Virus record (IMG/VR): IMGVR_UViG_3300006033_000021
DNA: 64,000 nucleotides
Direction: 5' to 3' (one strand)
From: an uncultured virus (IMG/VR IMGVR_UViG_3300006033_000021)
Taxonomy: Duplodnaviria > Heunggongvirae > Uroviricota > Caudoviricetes
In this document: positions 41,613-63,540 of the stretch, piece after piece
Layout: each line of letters opens with the position of its first letter
How positions within the stretch are numbered: position 1 is the first letter of the stretch
Program-made: the position numbers and the translations under genes
The notes under the pieces: model-generated
The model's input: only the letters and a program-made list of their open reading frames with translations
What the model was told of the DNA's origin: nothing
The model's database searches: none

Positions 41613-42051
41613 GGGGATGAAATGGTCTCGACAGGGAGTGTCGGAGTATTTCAATGCACGCCGGGGATGATGAGTTGGCCCCGTTAACAATCTTATCAAA
41701 CAATGAAATGACGAAGCTAACGTAGTTAGTATTAGTGACTTCCGCGCAGCTAAGGCCGCTAAGGTGGCTAAGGTTTCCGCTCCGGTCGCTTTCGCTCTCG
41801 CTGCCTAAATCGGCGAGACCGTTGGTCTAGGACTGTACCGAACAATAGCCTAGCAATGTTATTCCAAAAGTCGGTGTAGAGATCCACTGAATGACCTTTA
41901 GGTGGCTCGAAATAACTGGTTCTGAATTAGGCAAATGGCCTTGCTCATTGTGCTTCCGAGCCTAATTCAGCATTCAGGGGAACAATGAGACAAGCGTGTA
42001 GAGTTGGGTATAACGTCTCTTTGGACGCGAGTTCGATTCTCGCCATCTCCA
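41613..42051 (+). ncRNA. ssrA: tmRNA
   Basis: acceptor stem GGGGATG/CATCTCC-A with G3.U70; 5' GGTCTCGAC; T-arm GCGAG-TTCGATT-CTCGC; tag ORF 41710-41808 ending FALAA-stop; CCA not encoded. Confidence 0.95.
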
Positions 42052-42209
42052 TTGGTATTCAGGAGTATTAGGACACTGGATACTATCCCCTATTTTCCTA
42101 TCTCGCCTACATATGTAGAAGGAGACACAGGCCCGCTTCCACCATGGAGGCGGGCACTGGTTTTTATGGTGACTCCTGAATTGGAGTCATTCTTGCATTT
42201 AAGGAACCC

Positions 42210-56987: not shown

Positions 56988-57317
56988 ATGTCGGATTTCA
57001 TTACGATAGATGTTGAAGGTTGTGCTTTATTTAGAACTGGTCGAGTGAAGTGCAATTTGTACCGTATTGCTGATTTATATGAGAATCAGTTCTCTTCAAC
57101 TCAAGATCCTATGATTCAATTATTGCCCCGAGAAGAAGCGGAATCGATGATACTTCTTTTTGTACCAAAGGGAACTTTAGTAGGATGTTTTGTGGGGGAT
57201 GATTATTTGGGTTGGTTTGATGAGGACGGGCTGATAGAGGGGGCGAATCAGGCGTGGGCAGATGTTTTTCTTGAGGATATTCAGGAATGTGGGGCAGATG
57301 AAGAAGACGACGAATGA
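56988..57317 (+). CDS. hypothetical protein
   Basis: GGGAG RBS; weak resemblance to 56311-56766. Confidence 0.6.
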   Translation: MSDFITIDVEGCALFRTGRVKCNLYRIADLYENQFSSTQDPMIQLLPREEAESMILLFVPKGTLVGCFVGDDYLGWFDEDGLIEGANQAWADVFLEDIQECGADEEDDE

Positions 57318-57967
57318 ACCAAATATCCCAGGCGCACAGCATTGTTGGGCAAAGTCGGGGTCGGCCCGAAACTGACTTCTATCCTACACCTCCAGTAGCA
57401 ACGATTGAGTTATTGCAACGGGAACGATTCGATGGAACGATTTGTGAGCCATGTTGTGGCACTGGGGCGATTAGTGAGATCCTAAAAGAGAAGAGACCTT
57501 TTAGTGATATCTACTCCTACGATCTTAACGATTATGGCTATGGCGAAACGGGAGTGGACTTCCTAGAGGCTAATCGTCTGTGGGATAACATTATTACCAA
57601 TCCGCCATATTCTTTAGCTAGTGAGTTCGTTCAACAAGCCTTGGATCGGACGACAGGCAAAGTTGCTATGTTGCTAAAGACTGTCTTCCTTGAAGGGGTG
57701 TCAAGATATGGCCTTTTCAAAAGCACACCGCTTAAGACGGTATACGTCTTTAGTGGTAGATTGACTCTATATAGGAATGGAGAGAAACTAACCAATCAGG
57801 GTATGATTTCGTATTCTTGGTTTGTCTGGGATCACAACTATAATGGTTTACCAAATCTAGACTGGATCCTATTAGATAAGAATGTCCAGAATTCTGCCAC
57901 TGAACAAGTAAAAGCAATGAAGGCTTCTGAATTGCTTCTTCCACTATGCCAAGGGAGTCTCAAATGA
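57314..57967 (+). CDS. phage-type N6-adenine DNA methyltransferase
   Basis: DFYPTP, EPCCGTGAI (motif I), ITNPPY (motif IV), YSWFVW. Confidence 0.88.
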   Translation: MNQISQAHSIVGQSRGRPETDFYPTPPVATIELLQRERFDGTICEPCCGTGAISEILKEKRPFSDIYSYDLNDYGYGETGVDFLEANRLWDNIITNPPYSLASEFVQQALDRTTGKVAMLLKTVFLEGVSRYGLFKSTPLKTVYVFSGRLTLYRNGEKLTNQGMISYSWFVWDHNYNGLPNLDWILLDKNVQNSATEQVKAMKASELLLPLCQGSLK

Positions 57968-58530
57968 AAGTCAAAGATCTAAGAGCAAGCTTGAATGTGT
58001 TTGACCGTGATGCTCTATGTTGCGCGACCTCAAAACGATTTGATACCGTATATGGTGTAGAAGCAATCTTTTATGGAGGTATCCCCAAGGATGATCCGTC
58101 AACCATATTAGAATACGAGAAGATTGGCGATATGAGCCAAGTTACTCCTGTTTTAACAATTATGGTTGATAGTCCGCTATATGTTGACTCCCTGAAAGAC
58201 AAGAGTACTTTATCAGATTATTGGTCGGTTGGCGAAGTTCTTGATTTTCTTACCTTCATTAATGACGATCTGGAAGTCCGTATCTTGGAATTAGAAGTTG
58301 GTGAACTTGCCAATCAATTTGATGAGTATCTGTATTGCGTAAAGGATGTTGTGGCTGCTTGGTGCTTACCATATGTCGGCGAGAATATAGCGACGGAGCA
58401 TCATTGGCTAACACCTGATATAGATATGGATGTGGTTGAGAAATATGTTGAGGATAATCATAACGCCATAACCTCCGAGGATGTTTTGGAAGACCATATT
58501 GTGGATTGTGCTTTGATTCAAAGCGCTTGA
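57964..58530 (+). CDS. acidic hypothetical protein
   Basis: ATGA overlap with upstream stop; GGGAG RBS. Confidence 0.6.
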   Translation: MKVKDLRASLNVFDRDALCCATSKRFDTVYGVEAIFYGGIPKDDPSTILEYEKIGDMSQVTPVLTIMVDSPLYVDSLKDKSTLSDYWSVGEVLDFLTFINDDLEVRILELEVGELANQFDEYLYCVKDVVAAWCLPYVGENIATEHHWLTPDIDMDVVEKYVEDNHNAITSEDVLEDHIVDCALIQSA

Positions 58531-58555
58531 CACCTACCGCTCGTTGTGGTACGAT
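58527..58555 (+). promoter_or_regulatory. sigma70-type promoter
   Basis: TTGACA-17-TACGAT with TG. Confidence 0.7.
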
Positions 58556-58580
58556 AGTGGTATAGGCAAGGAGTAATTGG

Positions 58581-59198
58581 ATGTGGTCCTCCGATATCAC
58601 TAAGGCATTTGACTATGCGATGTATAATCATCGCACACAAACACGCAAAGCCATGGGGTCGGTTCCTTATGGATCCCACCTCATGGCTGTTACTGCTATT
58701 GTTTTAGAATGCGGCGGCACAGAGGCAGAAGCTATTGCTGCATTGCTGCATGATGTCGTTGAAGACACAGATCGTACACTTAACGACATTCAGGTGTTGT
58801 TCGGCGACGAAGTGATGAGTATCGTTGCTCAAGTGAGCGAAGATAAGTCACTCAAATGGGAAGACCGAAAGCGAGCGGCTATTACGCATGTTACCGATAT
58901 GACCGATTCGGGTCTTTTGGTAAAATGTGCAGATGTGTTACATAACACTGGTACCTTGCTTTCTGATTTTGATAGTATCAACTGGTCTTTCTTTAAGAAG
59001 GGTAAGCATGTTACTCTTCACAAGTATAGTTCGGTACTCAAGGCGTTGGTTAATGAGGTGGCGCAGAGGCAGAACTTCGCGCCCGTCATAAGGGAGCGCT
59101 TGGATAAGACCTATGCTAATTTCCAGGAATTGGTGTTGACGCATTGTTGCGAATCAGATCCTCGAAAAGTCTACGATTGGTTTAAGGGAGAAGAATGA
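58581..59198 (+). CDS. stand-alone RelA/SpoT-type HD hydrolase (small alarmone hydrolase/MESH1-like)
   Basis: HRTQTRK..PYGSHL, AALLHDVVEDT, FGDEV, VKCADVLHN. Confidence 0.85.
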   Translation: MWSSDITKAFDYAMYNHRTQTRKAMGSVPYGSHLMAVTAIVLECGGTEAEAIAALLHDVVEDTDRTLNDIQVLFGDEVMSIVAQVSEDKSLKWEDRKRAAITHVTDMTDSGLLVKCADVLHNTGTLLSDFDSINWSFFKKGKHVTLHKYSSVLKALVNEVAQRQNFAPVIRERLDKTYANFQELVLTHCCESDPRKVYDWFKGEE

Positions 59199-59770
59199 TG
59201 GATTCAATAACTGTACAGGCTATGTTGGTAGAGTTTGCGAAGACCTTTGATGCTGAACAGATTCGTTACGCTGTCATGCAGGATACGAATCGACAAATTG
59301 GTGGGGAATTTGTAGGTTTTTCTAATGAGGGACTCTTATATCAGGGCCTTTATAGTTATGATATTGACGTAATTACATGGCGGGAATTTGACGATATAAA
59401 GGATTGTGCCCCAGCTATTTATGAAGAGTTCCAAACCAAGCTGCAAGAGAAGATTCAGCTAAAAGCGGAGCATGAAAACCTGTTGACTTATCTTAGAGAG
59501 CGCGTTCGTATGTTTGATAGAGATATCTCGTCTCATATAAGCGCAATCAAGGCTCTTTCTGCCTCTCAACAGGCAAGTCCGTTGTTTAAGGACTGGAAGA
59601 GTTTAATCGATGATCGTCAGCAACGACTTAATCATGCAACGCTTGGTAAGTCGCTTTTGGAAGAAGCGCTGAAGAATCTGCGAGCCGTTTTTCTTGAGGA
59701 TTTGCCCTCAGTAAAGCGTAATCTTGAAATTCTGCAAGCATTGAGGGATGACCCTCGTATGATTCCTTGA
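59195..59770 (+). CDS. hypothetical coiled-coil protein
   Basis: ATGA overlap. Confidence 0.6.
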   Translation: MMDSITVQAMLVEFAKTFDAEQIRYAVMQDTNRQIGGEFVGFSNEGLLYQGLYSYDIDVITWREFDDIKDCAPAIYEEFQTKLQEKIQLKAEHENLLTYLRERVRMFDRDISSHISAIKALSASQQASPLFKDWKSLIDDRQQRLNHATLGKSLLEEALKNLRAVFLEDLPSVKRNLEILQALRDDPRMIP

Positions 59771-59777
59771 GGAGAAA

Positions 59778-60224
59778 ATGATGTGTTTGAGTGATTGGTT
59801 ACAGTTAATTGAACGGGTTTCAGAGAAGTGGCAGAAGAATTACATCGAGGATTGCATGATTGCTCAACCAAAGCAATCATGGACCCGTCAGTATGGCAGG
59901 GCCATAACACCCTATACCGAAAATTGCTTGATTTATAAGCAGTGGGTTATAGGCGGGATTACTGGGTGTGGATGGAGCGATAAAGACCAAGGCTATCCCA
60001 GAGATCCTGATCCTGAACCGAATAATGATTTGCTGGATGCTATCTTAACAGAGGTAGCACCCGACATCAAGTATCTTCAGTATCGTAAGATTGAAGCACT
60101 GGAAAAGCAGTCATATTACGAAGAACAATCAGGATACTACGGTAATCGTAATAGGTATGCTGTTAAGACGATTGCCTTGAAAGATCTGTATGCGGCTCTA
60201 GTCGATATGGGATATCTTCAATAG
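59778..60224 (+). CDS. hypothetical protein
   Basis: GAGGAG RBS. Confidence 0.65.
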   Translation: MMCLSDWLQLIERVSEKWQKNYIEDCMIAQPKQSWTRQYGRAITPYTENCLIYKQWVIGGITGCGWSDKDQGYPRDPDPEPNNDLLDAILTEVAPDIKYLQYRKIEALEKQSYYEEQSGYYGNRNRYAVKTIALKDLYAALVDMGYLQ

Positions 60225-60257
60225 GATTCCAGGATTGTCAATGGGTATCAATACCAT

Positions 60258-60719
60258 ATGGACCTATTGAGGATAGTTTTAGCTAACATGCGCACACTTG
60301 AACAAGATCTGTATTCAATTGTGCCTGCTATTGTGGCGAGCGCGCAAGCGGCTTATAATAAGCATGATTTGTTGCCTGAGGATATCGAGGATTTGGCGGG
60401 TGGTGGTATCTGTGATGATATCGCAGAAGCCATCGCAGAAGCCATTAATGAAGCTTTATTTTCGGGTGACTCAGATGTAGACGTTGAAGCTAAAACTGTT
60501 CATCATATGGACGAAAACCATACATTGGTATATGTTCGAAGGATACAGCAAAACGGTGGAGTCGAAGTGGTTATGGTTGATATTCCATACCATATCTATG
60601 AGACACAAAGGGGGTATTATCAGTATGATATTACTCCAAATGTGGTTTTCGAGCCAAATAATGTGCTAATCAATACTATTGATATCTCCTCCGAGGATTT
60701 TGACGCTTTAGACGAGTAG
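60258..60719 (+). CDS. acidic hypothetical protein
   Basis: 153 aa; GGGICDDIA; variant class II motif upstream. Confidence 0.6.
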   Translation: MDLLRIVLANMRTLEQDLYSIVPAIVASAQAAYNKHDLLPEDIEDLAGGGICDDIAEAIAEAINEALFSGDSDVDVEAKTVHHMDENHTLVYVRRIQQNGGVEVVMVDIPYHIYETQRGYYQYDITPNVVFEPNNVLINTIDISSEDFDALDE

Positions 60720-60743
60720 TATAATAGAGCTAGGAGAATAAGA

Positions 60744-61073
60744 ATGCGCAGATATTAGGACCAACACTTCTACGTACTGGTAAGGGATGACCTTCCCATT
60801 CCTCAACAAGCTGTTCAGGCAATTCACGCCGCTCACGAAGCAGCTTTACACTTAGTCGAACCTCCCCCTAAGATTGCATCATTGGTACTATGTTCTGTGC
60901 CAGATGAAGATGCTTTACTTCGGGCTGAGCATGTCCTTAATATGAAGGGCGTGCGTAGCATTGTCTTTTATGAACCCGATATGGGTAATATCCCTACTGC
61001 TCTGGCTACAGAGTATGTGACGGGTTCCACTCGTAAGTTGTTTAGTAAATATCCACTATGGGGAAAGGAGTAA
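60744..61073 (+). CDS. PTH2-like peptidyl-tRNA hydrolase with in-frame UAG at codon 5
   Basis: AGGAG-ATG CGC AGA TAT TAG GAC...; reading on gives FYVLVRDDL..QQAVQAIHAA...FYEPDMGNIPTALA, a PTH2-family pattern. Confidence 0.75.
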
Positions 61074-61076
61074 ACC

Positions 61077-61118
61077 ATGTTGTAGGGCACGGTAGAACGC
61101 GCGCCTCCCATTGGCTAA
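61077..61118 (+). other. leader minigene ML(UAG)GTVERAPPIG*
   Basis: AAGGAG RBS overlapping the PTH2 stop; RAPP follows an in-frame UAG. Confidence 0.55.
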
Positions 61119-61158
61119 CTAAATCGGTATGTTGCCCTTTTGCCAATGGAGAGATACA

Positions 61159-61527
61159 ATGTTAACTGAATATATCATCGACCGTTTAACCAAGATTCGT
61201 CAGCGTATCAAGGCTTGTGCTTACTATGTGACTAACCAGGAGCATTGCAAGCCTGAAGATTATGATGAGATCATTAAGACAATCAGCCCATATAGCCGTA
61301 GTTGTGAATACTATATGACTGCCTTGTTGAATCTACACCATAAGATTCGTGGTCATACTGAAAGTTATCACGACTATAAGCCAGCTAAGGATGGTTCTCA
61401 TGATGGGCGACAAAACTATGTGAGTAGCCTTCAGTATGCGCTCATGAAAGAACTCGACATTACCAAGGAGATGCTCGATATGATCGCTGCAAATGTCGAG
61501 GAATATCAAGCGCAGAAAGTTGCGTAA
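61159..61527 (+). CDS. hypothetical protein downstream of PTH2 with occludable RBS
   Basis: GGAGAG RBS (61148-61153) pairs with 61105-61115. Confidence 0.65.
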   Translation: MLTEYIIDRLTKIRQRIKACAYYVTNQEHCKPEDYDEIIKTISPYSRSCEYYMTALLNLHHKIRGHTESYHDYKPAKDGSHDGRQNYVSSLQYALMKELDITKEMLDMIAANVEEYQAQKVA

Positions 61528-61538
61528 TATTGCGCAAT

Positions 61539-61571
61539 GGGGCGGTGGGGGGGATGATTCTCCACCGCCCC
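61539..61571 (+). terminator. GC-rich hairpin closing the PTH2 unit
   Basis: GGGGCGGTGGGG...CTCCACCGCCCC; no strong U-tract. Confidence 0.5.
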
Positions 61572-62652: not shown

Positions 62653-63540
62653 ATGGCATTTACGACAATCACACCGGGGACACTACCCGTCGTCAACGTG
62701 AGTGGGGATACATTGCCCGAAGTATGGGAGGCAGCACTAGTTGCTGTATGGGACCATGGGGCGGCTATTCCCACTCAATACGACAAGCCCGGTGATCCAC
62801 CTAGCAAAGATGCTACAGCCATCTTAACTATCCACCATCCTCTACAAGAGCCCCGTATTCACCTCGCATTCCCAGGCGGTATAGCGGATCTAGAGATCTA
62901 TCGCCAAGAAGTCGTAGATGGTATTCACGATCATTGGATTGATCCCAAAGCCGGCAAGTGGGAGTATACCTATCACGAGCGATTGTTTGATTACAAGGTT
63001 TTGGTAAAGCAAGATGCTGGGACGGTTTTTGAATGCCGGCCTATAAAGCATATCAATCAGATCCAATACGTAATTGACGCTTTAGTAGAAGCCCCTCATA
63101 CACGCAGAGCCCAAGCTATTACTTGGAAACCGTGGGAGGATTGTGGTATTAGCGATCCCGCATGTCTCCAGTCATTATGGTTCCGTATATTTGATGATGA
63201 ATTGGTAATGAATGTTAGAATGAGATCTAATGATCTATTTAAGGCTACATTCATGAATCTTTATGCCTTTATAGATTTGCAAAGATTGGTGGCTGAAAAA
63301 GTATCAGAAAAGCTTGGTAGAGAAATCCGTGTTGGTCAGGTTAATCACCAAGTTGATTCTATGCATATCTACGGGTCTTATTATCAAGAGGTTGAGCGTT
63401 TCCTTGACACAATGAAGAATAAAACCTTCAGTCAGAGGACTTGGAATGCTTGTGATTACGCTGATGTCTTTGAAGAGGCTAAGGCTGATATCAAAAAGTC
63501 TCTAGAAGAAGAAAAGCGCACAGGCAGAAAAGGAGTCTAG
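62653..63540 (+). CDS. thyA: thymidylate synthase (ThyA fold)
   Basis: YTYHERL, TRRAQAITW, DPACLQ (catalytic Cys), RMRSND, Asn in FMNLYA, SMHIY. Confidence 0.85.
   Translation: MAFTTITPGTLPVVNVSGDTLPEVWEAALVAVWDHGAAIPTQYDKPGDPPSKDATAILTIHHPLQEPRIHLAFPGGIADLEIYRQEVVDGIHDHWIDPKAGKWEYTYHERLFDYKVLVKQDAGTVFECRPIKHINQIQYVIDALVEAPHTRRAQAITWKPWEDCGISDPACLQSLWFRIFDDELVMNVRMRSNDLFKATFMNLYAFIDLQRLVAEKVSEKLGREIRVGQVNHQVDSMHIYGSYYQEVERFLDTMKNKTFSQRTWNACDYADVFEEAKADIKKSLEEEKRTGRKGV

Follow-up and report, generated by a model that had tools for sequence, protein, structure and literature searches.

In peptidyl-tRNA hydrolases of the PTH2 type, the lysine of the GK..Q..HA motif and the aspartate of the DAG motif are catalytic, and to our knowledge this family has not been described as having a stop-codon gate or as being paired with a suppressor tRNA. 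The prfB gene, which encodes RF2, is autoregulated through an in-frame UGA by means of a +1 frameshift and in this way senses the release factor. In the bar minigenes of phage lambda, a strong Shine-Dalgarno (SD) sequence and an ATG are followed by a single sense codon and then a stop, and their biology is that of peptidyl-tRNA drop-off and Pth. The presence of PTH2 in jumbo phages has been noted previously, in a passage that interprets it as ribosome rescue (Iyer et al. 2021, PMC7824862). For recoded phages, the text of a preprint proposes that in-frame stops delay expression until the suppressor has been made (Borges et al. 2021, 10.1101/2021.08.26.457843); in that text the strings 'hydrolase' and 'pth' have 0 occurrences. 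A search of article texts gave no printed description of a module of gated gene and suppressor tRNA.

The DNA analysed here, referred to as the window, is a stretch of 64,000 nucleotides from an uncultured virus of the Caudoviricetes, and its features are listed in Table 1. The gene at 60744-61073 is probably a suppressor-dependent gene for a PTH2-fold tRNA-ester hydrolase, the translation of which is gated by an amber codon. It shows an SD-preceded ATG, a short leader, an in-frame stop and a domain of the pattern YVxVRxDL...QQxVQAxHA, with no canonical start in between. The first canonical start behind the gate is a TTG at 60882, 41 codons in, and a start at this position would delete the QQxVQAxHA motif, which is invariant in the PTH2-like family. 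The preliminary description had assumed a double amber gate at this place. Three TAG codons (60222-60224, 60717-60719 and 60756-60758) connect four segments that share one frame, and homologues of the read-through translation cover either residues ~2-150 or residues ~165-313, none of the best 150 crossing the junction. Because the homologues match one segment or the other, it was concluded that each of the first two TAGs truly terminates a gene of its own. The homologues of the first of these genes are 115-165 aa long, cover residues ~2-150 and extend no further, while P0073, P0131 and P0154 align only to residues 165-313, which correspond to the second. In the contig of run X2 (depth 2.9), which extends over the gate, the differences listed include one base inserted after 60718, and the 153-aa ORF would thereby fall out of frame with the leader. 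The TAG at 60756-60758, four codons past the ATG, is the sole one of the three that interrupts a gene, and the design of SD, ATG, short leader and TAG occurs a single time within the window. There is thus one gate, and the other two ambers are ordinary stops.

Table 1. Features of the PTH2-like locus and of other elements in the window
Feature	Position	Strand	Basis or remark
Shine-Dalgarno AGGAGA	60732..60737	+	6 nt 5' of ATG 60744; read from sequence
Leader codons ATG CGC AGA TAT (M R R Y)	60744..60755	+	read from sequence
Gate: in-frame amber TAG, next base G	60756..60758	+	read from sequence
PTH2-fold domain, 104 aa, plus TAA stop	60759..61073	+	structure prediction, Foldseek, profile search
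HD_4 (RelA/SpoT-type) metal-dependent hydrolase gene	58581..59198	+	PF13328, E 1.2e-14
148-aa gene (family widespread but unnamed), TAG a real stop	59778..60224	+	homologue alignment
Separate 153-aa gene, TAG a real stop	60258..60719	+	homologue alignment
Orphan 122-aa ORF	61159..61527	+	coding; no linkage to PTH2
14-bp G+C-rich hairpin	61539..61571	+	-29 kcal/mol, z -3.9
tmRNA gene (RF00023)	41613..42054	+	Rfam, 116 bits vs cut-off 47

Gene callers hide the PTH2-like gene by truncating, splitting or skipping it, both in the window and in two cultured phages, Acinetobacter phage ME3 and Ralstonia phage RsoM2USA; the automatic call in the window is only a 58-aa fragment (P0001). Such a fragment, like the GTG codons that some relatives have within the first strand, would suit a gene broken by a nonsense mutation or a sequencing error, or a mis-started gene in which an upstream mini-ORF is followed by re-initiation at a non-canonical codon. 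An explanation of this kind is highly improbable. The contig of the source run agrees with the window at a depth of 16.4 and has no alternative letters. The same arrangement is seen again in 42 representative loci with 34-58% identity to the PTH2-like protein of the window, the type of stop following the anticodon of the tRNA. The differences from a related strain are mostly synonymous, which also disagrees with a broken gene; those listed for the PTH2-fold domain include six synonymous codon changes and one V>I change, and purifying selection acts on the domain in the window's own lineage. No close DNA relatives of the window were present among 50,697 phage records.

The AlphaFold2 model of the frame 60759-61073 (pLDDT 93.8) has the PTH2 alpha/beta fold, and the top 12 Foldseek matches in the PDB were all PTH2/Bit1 chains, with TM values of 0.72-0.81 (3erj_A, 0.81). 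The family profile matches the PDB peptidyl-tRNA hydrolase 24bt_A (5.7e-5), and PF01981 (PTH2) matches 21 of 24 members of the PTH2-like family at E<=1, the best at 3e-13. For the window protein itself the PF01981 score is 14.7 bits (E 0.036), under the gathering threshold of 23 bits, and a PDB search made directly with its sequence gave nothing significant. The earlier assignment to PTH2 was therefore borne out by the fold, while the sequence stays below the Pfam threshold. The alpha/beta fold is common to this protein and to PTH2 (AF2095, 3erj; MJ0051, 2zv3; human Bit1, 1q7s), and the Q..HA and TA..P motifs of PTH2 are also present in the phage family. In contrast to PTH2, the phage family has a loop that is four residues shorter and lacks the conserved GK lysine and DAG aspartate, which are replaced by an invariant glutamine (Q16) and an invariant glutamate (E72) when the family profile is aligned with 24bt, 2zv3 and 1rzw. 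Because of this replacement, peptidyl-tRNA hydrolase activity cannot be assumed.

The comparison set comprised 98 PTH2-like loci, which were grouped into 76 clusters. The homologue carries an in-frame stop in 44 of the 76 clusters, usually 1-12 codons past an SD-ATG. Gate and suppressor tRNA are both present in the fetched DNA of 31 clusters, and the anticodon matches the stop in 30 of them (23 TAG-CUA, 6 TGA-UCA and 1 TAA-UUA). Under a laxer label, all 32 of 32 representative rows match, with a Fisher value of 1.1e-6 that ignores the kinship of the loci. The best tree implies at least five joint changes of gate type and tRNA type; only one independent pair falls on well-supported branches, so that a sign test has no power. 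The earlier idea that the amber codon before the PTH2 domain is meaningful and reports a failure of termination has held, given that in relatives the stop co-varies with a suppressor tRNA. A suppressor tRNA was found within ~4.6 kb at 17 of the first 17 viral loci (CUA in 15 and UCA in 3, L011 carrying both), and a CUA tRNA at 6 of 6 MAG loci. The tRNA lies on the same strand as the PTH2-like gene in 45 of 46 rows, with a median gap of 434 bp. In the cultured Acinetobacter phage vB_AbaM_ME3, the leader and gate read MT-TAG, and a tRNA(CUA) is located ~450 bp upstream. Five related records contain 36 tRNAs, of which 7 are suppressors, and every one of these adjoins the PTH2-like gene. Where a gated gene had no tRNA within 2.5 kb, the suppressor was located further away in both whole records examined (~13 kb in Ralstonia phage RsoM2USA and ~8 kb in LR756511). 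The fetched DNA of 13 gated clusters, most of them short contigs, contains no suppressor tRNA; four such clusters besides the window span at least 2.8 kb on both sides (L077, L084, L107/L108; under the laxer rule L072, L113 and L118).

The leader itself appears to be translated, judging by the SD, the codon use and the bias of the next base. In the 42 gated representative loci it has 1-12 codons, which places the in-frame stop at codons 2-13, and its commonest form is 'MT' (16/42). By a simple SD pattern, 37 of these loci have an SD in front of the leader ATG. The leader ends with ACG in 17, and the base 3' of the stop is G in 29, A in 9, C in 4 and T in 0.

The presence of suppressor tRNAs is a mark of recoding in phages (Borges et al. 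preprint, 10.1101/2021.08.26.457843), and under a genome-wide reassignment of TAG (code 15) the gate would be a plain sense codon. This is extremely improbable for the present phage. In the window and in the five related records, one of which is a complete 191.5-kb genome, 92.5-96.5% of the sequence lies in standard-code ORFs. For the window this coverage amounts to 95.8% with code 11 and is no higher, at 94.1%, if TAG is treated as a sense codon, and the five related records behave alike. TAG ends 38 of 90 greedy ORFs in the window and is its commonest stop, and the in-frame stops of the relatives are confined to codons 2-13 instead of being scattered along the gene. The code of the window phage and of the module-bearing relatives is the standard one. 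With TAG as the commonest stop, an efficient suppressor would lengthen many of the phage's own proteins. Tandem back-up stops past TAG-terminated genes were not enriched, and a search of the window and G001-G005 for further genes gated by a TAG close to the start, which might form a regulon, gave no excess over TGA/TAA controls, with a simple SD pattern that missed the known PTH2-like gene in G003 and G004.

No tRNA was detected in the 64-kb window, either by ARAGORN or by Rfam (E<=5 along its full length, E<=10 at 60950-61250), and hence the window has no tRNA array. A hand scan of the window for CUA anticodon loops and T-loops returned only the T-arm of the tmRNA. The segment 61083-61135 has a tRNA-like look that was not supported on checking. 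A partner tRNA is unproven for the window gene because the 64 kb hold no tRNA, cognate suppressor or other, and the best reading is that the partner lies outside the window, is lost or comes from elsewhere.

It is proposed that ribosomes would start at the SD-ATG and reach the UAG at codon 5. Without a suppressor they would terminate there and release a peptide of four residues, whereas in the presence of a charged amber-suppressor tRNA the UAG would be read and translation would run on into the 104-residue domain. Through this choice between termination and reading, the protein output would follow suppressor activity. In the relatives, the module has two parts: the gated gene is accompanied, on the same strand and usually less than 1 kb away, by the gene of a cognate suppressor tRNA, with TAG paired with a CUA tRNA, TGA with UCA and TAA with UUA. 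Since their gate stop matches the nearby suppressor tRNA, synthesis of the protein probably requires this tRNA to be active. The enzyme may act on the ester-linked (peptidyl- or aminoacyl-) form of the suppressor tRNA itself, which we rate at somewhat below an even chance, and such an action would close a feedback loop on suppression. A more specific and tentative version, on balance doubtful, is that of a 'suppression governor', in which the gate gauges suppressor read-through and a proportionate amount of enzyme deacylates the same tRNA, holding suppression at a set level in a phage of standard code that terminates its own genes with that very stop codon. If true, this would parallel the autoregulation of RF2 on the side of the tRNA and would have evolved for all three stops.

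In 16 clusters, the suppressor tRNA adjoins an ungated PTH2-like gene, and these do not fit simple negative feedback. They would fit a constitutive helper, and with it a feed-forward clean-up, in which a gated but otherwise ordinary peptidyl-tRNA hydrolase recycles peptidyl-tRNAs from read-through, stalled or dropped-off ribosomes and the suppressor is not the substrate. The PTH2 fold, the weak PF01981 matches, the tmRNA in the same window and the view of jumbo-phage PTH2 as ribosome rescue in the passage cited above (Iyer et al. 2021, PMC7824862) are consistent with such a role. However, two conserved residues of the PTH2 motifs are replaced, and a tmRNA above the cut-off was found in none of the five related records. 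Hosts already possess Pth, and clean-up alone leaves the tight adjacency of the tRNA gene, apart from the main tRNA arrays, unexplained. A clean-up role of this kind is rather unlikely.

The preliminary description had gone further and united the HD hydrolase, PTH2, the 122-aa ORF and the tmRNA in a single module, an inducible counter-defence that would detect the failure of termination brought about by host defences. All of these parts exist, on the + strand. The HD_4 gene scores 54.8 bits against PF13328 (cut-off 27.2) and matches phrog_990 (1.8e-24), and its translation contains 'LLHDVVEDT', in line with the HD..ED motif that we take to be the mark of the RelA/SpoT-type HD hydrolase family. 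The tmRNA, placed at 41.6 kb, was confirmed by an Rfam match that covers model positions 1-374, with the T-arm and the CCA-proximal 3' end, and a tag frame ending in ...ALAA TAA can be recognized by eye; ARAGORN misses this gene. The 122-aa ORF is followed by the hairpin as described, and the latter is without a U-tract. HD_4 was even found directly beside the PTH2-like gene and a tRNA in 1 of 17 loci (L013).

The linkage of these parts was not borne out. Beyond the tRNA, no neighbouring protein family occurs in more than 9 of the 98 loci; the annotated neighbours include a macro domain and a SLOG/DprA-like protein (both below the Pfam cut-off), ADP-ribosylglycohydrolase, HNH, Ro60/TROVE, metallophosphoesterase, RlaP and dUTPase. 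HD_4 is present in 2 of the five related records, 10-20 kb from the PTH2-like gene, and is a neighbour of this gene and not a conserved partner. The tmRNA is real, yet it has no linkage to the PTH2-like family, with no match above the cut-off in any of the five related phage records. The 122-aa ORF is an orphan; among 5.8 billion proteins only the ORF itself was found, and it has no relatives in viral contigs or at the first 17 PTH2-like loci and no Pfam or PHROG match. Its Atlas scores are <=0.76, the Atlas's own model has a pLDDT of 0.49, and the differences listed from the related strain include four synonymous and one non-synonymous. With a product that has no relatives, the proposed linkage of this ORF to PTH2 fails as far as it can be tested. 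Nothing was found that ties the locus to anti-phage defence, and what the gate follows is a tRNA encoded by the phage rather than a defence of the host. The counter-defence module, very unlikely overall, is largely refuted by this lack of synteny.

Among the known systems, prfB likewise has an early in-frame stop in a translation-factor gene that senses the reading of that codon. Unlike in prfB, the gate of the window would be read in frame, and the suppressor tRNA would be sensed rather than the release factor. The bar minigenes of lambda resemble the 'MT-stop' leaders of the gated relatives, but the mini-frame of these phages is continued in frame by a protein domain, and the type of its stop goes with the anticodon of a tRNA. 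The module covers amber, opal and ochre alike and would constitute a natural, compact stop-codon switch, the output of which is presumably a tRNA-directed enzyme. It is present in cultured phages and is therefore directly testable, and a suppressor-specific deacylase or recycling factor, if either is true, would be of interest to engineers of genetic-code expansion. The recoded phages, as described in the preprint text of Borges et al., share with the PTH2-like module the phage-encoded CUA/UCA suppressor tRNAs. In contrast to them, the genomes with the module keep the standard code, and a stop of such design is found in one gene only, right behind its start and in a gene that adjoins the tRNA. 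Phage suppressor tRNAs have so far been read as tools of genome-wide code change; their position beside one dependent gene in phages of standard code points to a function other than recoding.

The PTH2-like gene of the window lies in a series of genes at 58.5-61.6 kb, all on the + strand (see the table below). It opens with AGGAGA (60732-60737), followed after six bases by ATG CGC AGA TAT and an in-frame TAG (60756-60758), behind which 104 codons are open up to TAA 61071-61073; the nearest ATG, GTG or TTG downstream of the gate is 41 codons in. Against Pfam PTH2 the product scored 14.7 bits, below the threshold of 23. PF01981 was matched at E<=1 by 21 of 24 aligned family members (best 3e-13), and the family profile found the solved peptidyl-tRNA hydrolase 24bt_A at 5.7e-5. 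The AlphaFold2 model, for which 24 sequences served as input, had a pLDDT of 93.8, and the 12 top-ranking PDB chains in Foldseek were all PTH2/Bit1 (TM 0.72-0.81). The predicted PTH2 fold of the window protein is considered a sound assignment.

Features of the window in and around the PTH2-like gene region
Feature	Position	Strand	Match or remark
tmRNA	41613-42054		Rfam, 116 bits
DNA methyltransferase (flank)	57314-57967		phrog_799, 9e-58, NPPY motif
HD gene	58581-59198	+	PF13328 HD_4 (E 1.2e-14), phrog_990
ORF	59195-59770	+	no family match
ORF, 148 aa	59778-60224	+	no Pfam or PHROG match
ORF, 153 aa	60258-60719	+	no family match
PTH2-like gene	60744-61073	+	
122-aa ORF	61159-61527	+	downstream of PTH2-like frame
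14-bp hairpin	61539-61571		ends gene series; -29 kcal/mol, z -3.9, no U-tract
ORF, 139 aa	61610-62029		signal-peptide-like N-terminus, Gly-rich (GGMGG/GNQGG) repeat tail; no family match
Divergent thymidylate-synthase-like gene (flank)	62653-63540		PF00303, 3.7e-13

A word-indexed search gave 13 candidate relatives, of which nine proteins reached E<=0.001; one is a 58-aa automatic call of the window's own gene, and the remaining eight stand alone and are each about 100 aa long. Scanning of viral contigs yielded 17 loci of the family. Six of these (L001-L004, L006 and L017) copy the window layout, in which a short leader from ATG ends at an in-frame TAG ahead of a conserved YVxVRxDL start; the gate of L005 is TGA rather than TAG, and in L006, L009 and L013 one position in a loop is taken by an internal TAG. 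ARAGORN, whose labels 'Pyl' and 'SeC' reflect the anticodon only, found a suppressor tRNA at all 17 loci, with CUA in 15 and UCA in L005, L010 and L011 (L011 has both). These tRNAs have ordinary D- and T-arms. Scanning of metagenomes gave 120 relatives, the best 80 of which were retained. In a genome collection of 185,579 species only six loci were found, all on MAG contigs and all with a CUA tRNA, the leader ending in TAG in at least four. Locus L160, with an MTGFT-TAG leader and an adjoining tRNA(CUA), comes from a Rubripirellula sp. MAG, in a record whose title gives it as a complete chromosome of 8.26 Mb, and may be a prophage. At L131-L134, a family member that contains an internal in-frame TAA is followed, 530 bp downstream, by an ochre (UUA) suppressor tRNA; ochre suppressors seem to have been rarely reported in phages.

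The 97 loci and the window were grouped into 76 clusters at >=90% identity. Under a strict rule, by which a leader stop was counted only where the sequence up to and including the position 11 codons upstream of the QQ motif held no canonical start and internal stops were always counted, 44 of the 76 clusters are gated. TAG gates occur with CUA in 23 clusters, with UCA or UUA in none, and without any suppressor tRNA in the fetched sequence in 12. For TGA gates the anticodon is UCA in six, CUA in one and UUA in none, one cluster lacking a suppressor tRNA in the sequence fetched; the single TAA-gated cluster has UUA. The sole mismatch is L017, where the match is frameshift-split and an MSGFV-TAG leader is also present. 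Among the 32 ungated clusters, a suppressor tRNA was found in 16 and none in 16. Of the 34 clusters with at least 2 kb available on both sides, gated or not, 24 have a suppressor tRNA (our own count from the cluster list). With a laxer leader rule applied to 74 representative rows, all 32 rows that have a single gate type and a single tRNA type agree (26 TAG-CUA, 6 TGA-UCA), L017, L082 (cut at a contig end) and duplicate cluster members being left out; the Fisher value of 1.1e-6 is not corrected for relatedness. On the best tree (107 columns) gate and tRNA type change five times each, always jointly, and a sign test is powerless with one independent pair on well-supported branches. These counts show, at the level of sequence, a match of stop and anticodon across all three stops.

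The leader looks as if built for translation. An SD sequence precedes its ATG in 37 of 42 gated rows, its length is 1-12 codons, and it reads 'MT' in 16 rows; ACG directly precedes the stop in 17 of the 42, and the base 3' of the stop is G in 29, A in nine, C in four and T in none. The suppressor tRNA closest to the gene shares its strand in 45 of 46 rows and lies upstream in 25 and downstream in 21, with a median gap of 434 bp and 38 rows within 1 kb.

By tblastn, the family was found in eight phage records, representing seven phages. The cultured Acinetobacter phage vB_AbaM_ME3 (L165) carries MT-TAG ahead of the domain and, on that strand and about 450 bp upstream, a tRNA whose annotation gives 'anticodon CTA'; in the deposited record the CDS (ME3_195) begins after the TAG. 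In Ralstonia phage RsoM2USA (L164) the gene, with ML-TAG, is unannotated and the tRNA(CUA) is about 13 kb off. The gated gene is invisible in the public gene tables of both phages. The uncultured 595-kb phage LR756511 has MTH-TAG and a tRNA(CUA) about 8 kb off. In the cultured jumbo phages XacN1 (L163) and Xoo-sp13 (L166) of Xanthomonas and RAS14 (L167) of Stenotrophomonas the domain is ungated and fused behind about 170 extra residues, with no tRNA within 2.5 kb. A gene annotated as glutamyl-tRNA amidotransferase is located about 1.2 kb upstream of the domain in XacN1 and Xoo-sp13, and one annotated as valyl-tRNA synthetase about 1 kb downstream in RAS14.

No tRNA was found in the 64-kb window by ARAGORN, by Rfam at E<=5 or by a search of ours that looked for CUA anticodon loops and for T-loops. 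Given the distant tRNA(CUA) of RsoM2USA and LR756511, a gated gene with no adjoining tRNA, as in the window, fits with a tRNA at another site of the genome. Just 3' of the PTH2-like stop, 61083-61135 looks like a tRNA 5' half (TTGTAG..ACGGTAGAAC..) comparable to the L006 suppressor; a covariance search gave no match there, and the likeness may be due to chance or to a decayed tRNA.

The window and five related phage records (G001-G005) use the standard code. Greedy standard-code ORFs cover 95.8% of the window (64 kb), 96.2% of G001 (98 kb), 94.4% of G002 (116 kb), 93.2% of G003 (191.5 kb, terminal repeats, rated complete), 96.5% of G004 (50 kb) and 92.5% of G005 (100 kb), and TAG as sense brought no gain over TGA and TAA controls in any of the six. 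TAG terminates 55 of 148 ORFs in G002. It is also the commonest stop of the window (38 of 90 greedy ORFs; TAA 35, TGA 17) at a G+C of 43.5%, which is unusual for bacteria-like genomes. Seven of the 36 tRNAs of G001-G005 are suppressors, none of them more than about 3.1 kb from the PTH2-like gene; they are separate from the main tRNA arrays in G001 and G003, and the sole tRNA of G002 is a suppressor. When an SD, an ATG, a short leader and a stop were searched for, the PTH2-like gene alone turned up with TAG in the window and in G002, and elsewhere TAG cases were not in excess of TGA and TAA controls.

The preliminary description had noted two UAG-interrupted frames. The TAGs at 60222-60224 and 60717-60719 share the frame of the PTH2-like gene by coincidence. 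When the read-through translation of 59778-60716 was searched against 1.84 billion representatives, 920 matches were obtained at E<=0.001, and each of the best 150 covers either residues ~2-150 or ~165-313, none crossing the junction. Hence, these are two separate genes with genuine, ordinary TAG stops. Most of the 920 representatives are proteins of 115-165 aa that align to the 148-aa ORF, a member of a large unnamed family; the domain of the 153-aa ORF also occurs within very large proteins (P0021, 1664 aa; P0134, 797 aa). The contig of the source run (depth 16.4) is identical to the window throughout. In a related strain, from a run of another study, a one-base insertion after 60718 would leave the upstream ORF and the leader in different frames (one contig of depth 2.9, possibly an error). 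On contigs of depth below 5, the listed differences of this strain are six synonymous and one Val>Ile in the domain, and four synonymous and one non-synonymous in the 122-aa ORF; their mostly synonymous nature indicates purifying selection on the domain and argues that the frame behind the window TAG is translated.

The HD_4 gene, the PTH2 fold, the 122-aa ORF with its hairpin and the tmRNA were all upheld as features; their proposed union in a multi-gene stress module was not. Among 5.8 billion proteins the 122-aa ORF found only itself, an Atlas search gave no usable match, and no relatives were present in viral contigs or the first 17 PTH2-like loci, so that the suggested linkage of its family to PTH2 found no support. 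A tmRNA above the cut-off was found in none of the five related records; HD_4 occurs in two of them, 10-20 kb from the PTH2-like gene, and adjoins it once, in L013. No protein family adjoins the gene in more than nine of 98 loci. The window's tmRNA was missed by ARAGORN even at lowered thresholds, and its tag frame, read by eye, is unusually long (about 30 codons, ending ...ALAA TAA). Some neighbourhoods (L073, L008, L012, L104, L017 and L120) hold RNA-repair and ADP-ribose-reversal genes, none widely conserved: Ro60/TROVE, RlaP, a macro domain (below the Pfam cut-off), ADP-ribosylglycohydrolase and SLOG/DprA-like (below the cut-off).

The kernel of the earlier proposal, that an amber codon ties PTH2 expression to termination failure, is retained on the basis of the stop-anticodon match in relatives. 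We infer with high confidence that the PTH2-like protein would be made only while the gate is being decoded by its cognate suppressor, and that the protein's output would thus report suppressor activity. More tentatively, and with somewhat less than an even chance, the enzyme might act on an acylated form of that particular tRNA, because the fold is that of a tRNA-acyl ester-cleaving enzyme and the only conserved partner is one tRNA. An enzyme limiting suppression is attractive since many genes of these phages end in the gated stop, although the tRNA is still kept in 16 ungated clusters. A recycling or clean-up factor also fits, in agreement with the ungated forms and with canonical PTH2 chemistry, but the motif residues are altered: in profile alignments with three solved PTH2s, the family's invariant Gln16 and Glu72 stand at the Lys of 'GK' and the Asp of 'DAG', which we take to be catalytically important in Sulfolobus Pth2.

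Literature searches over main texts found no paper describing a link between phage suppressor tRNAs and PTH2 or peptidyl-tRNA hydrolase. In the available part of the preprint of Borges et al. (10.1101/2021.08.26.457843), 'hydrolase' and 'pth' do not occur, and the accessible text of a 2026 jumbo-phage survey brings up suppressor tRNAs for recoding only. Jumbo-phage PTH2 was regarded as a ribosome-rescue factor (Iyer et al. 2021; PMC7824862), the sections at hand containing neither 'suppressor' nor 'stop codon'. The window gate is part of a widespread module, not found described in print, that pairs a suppressor tRNA with a stop-gated hydrolase.
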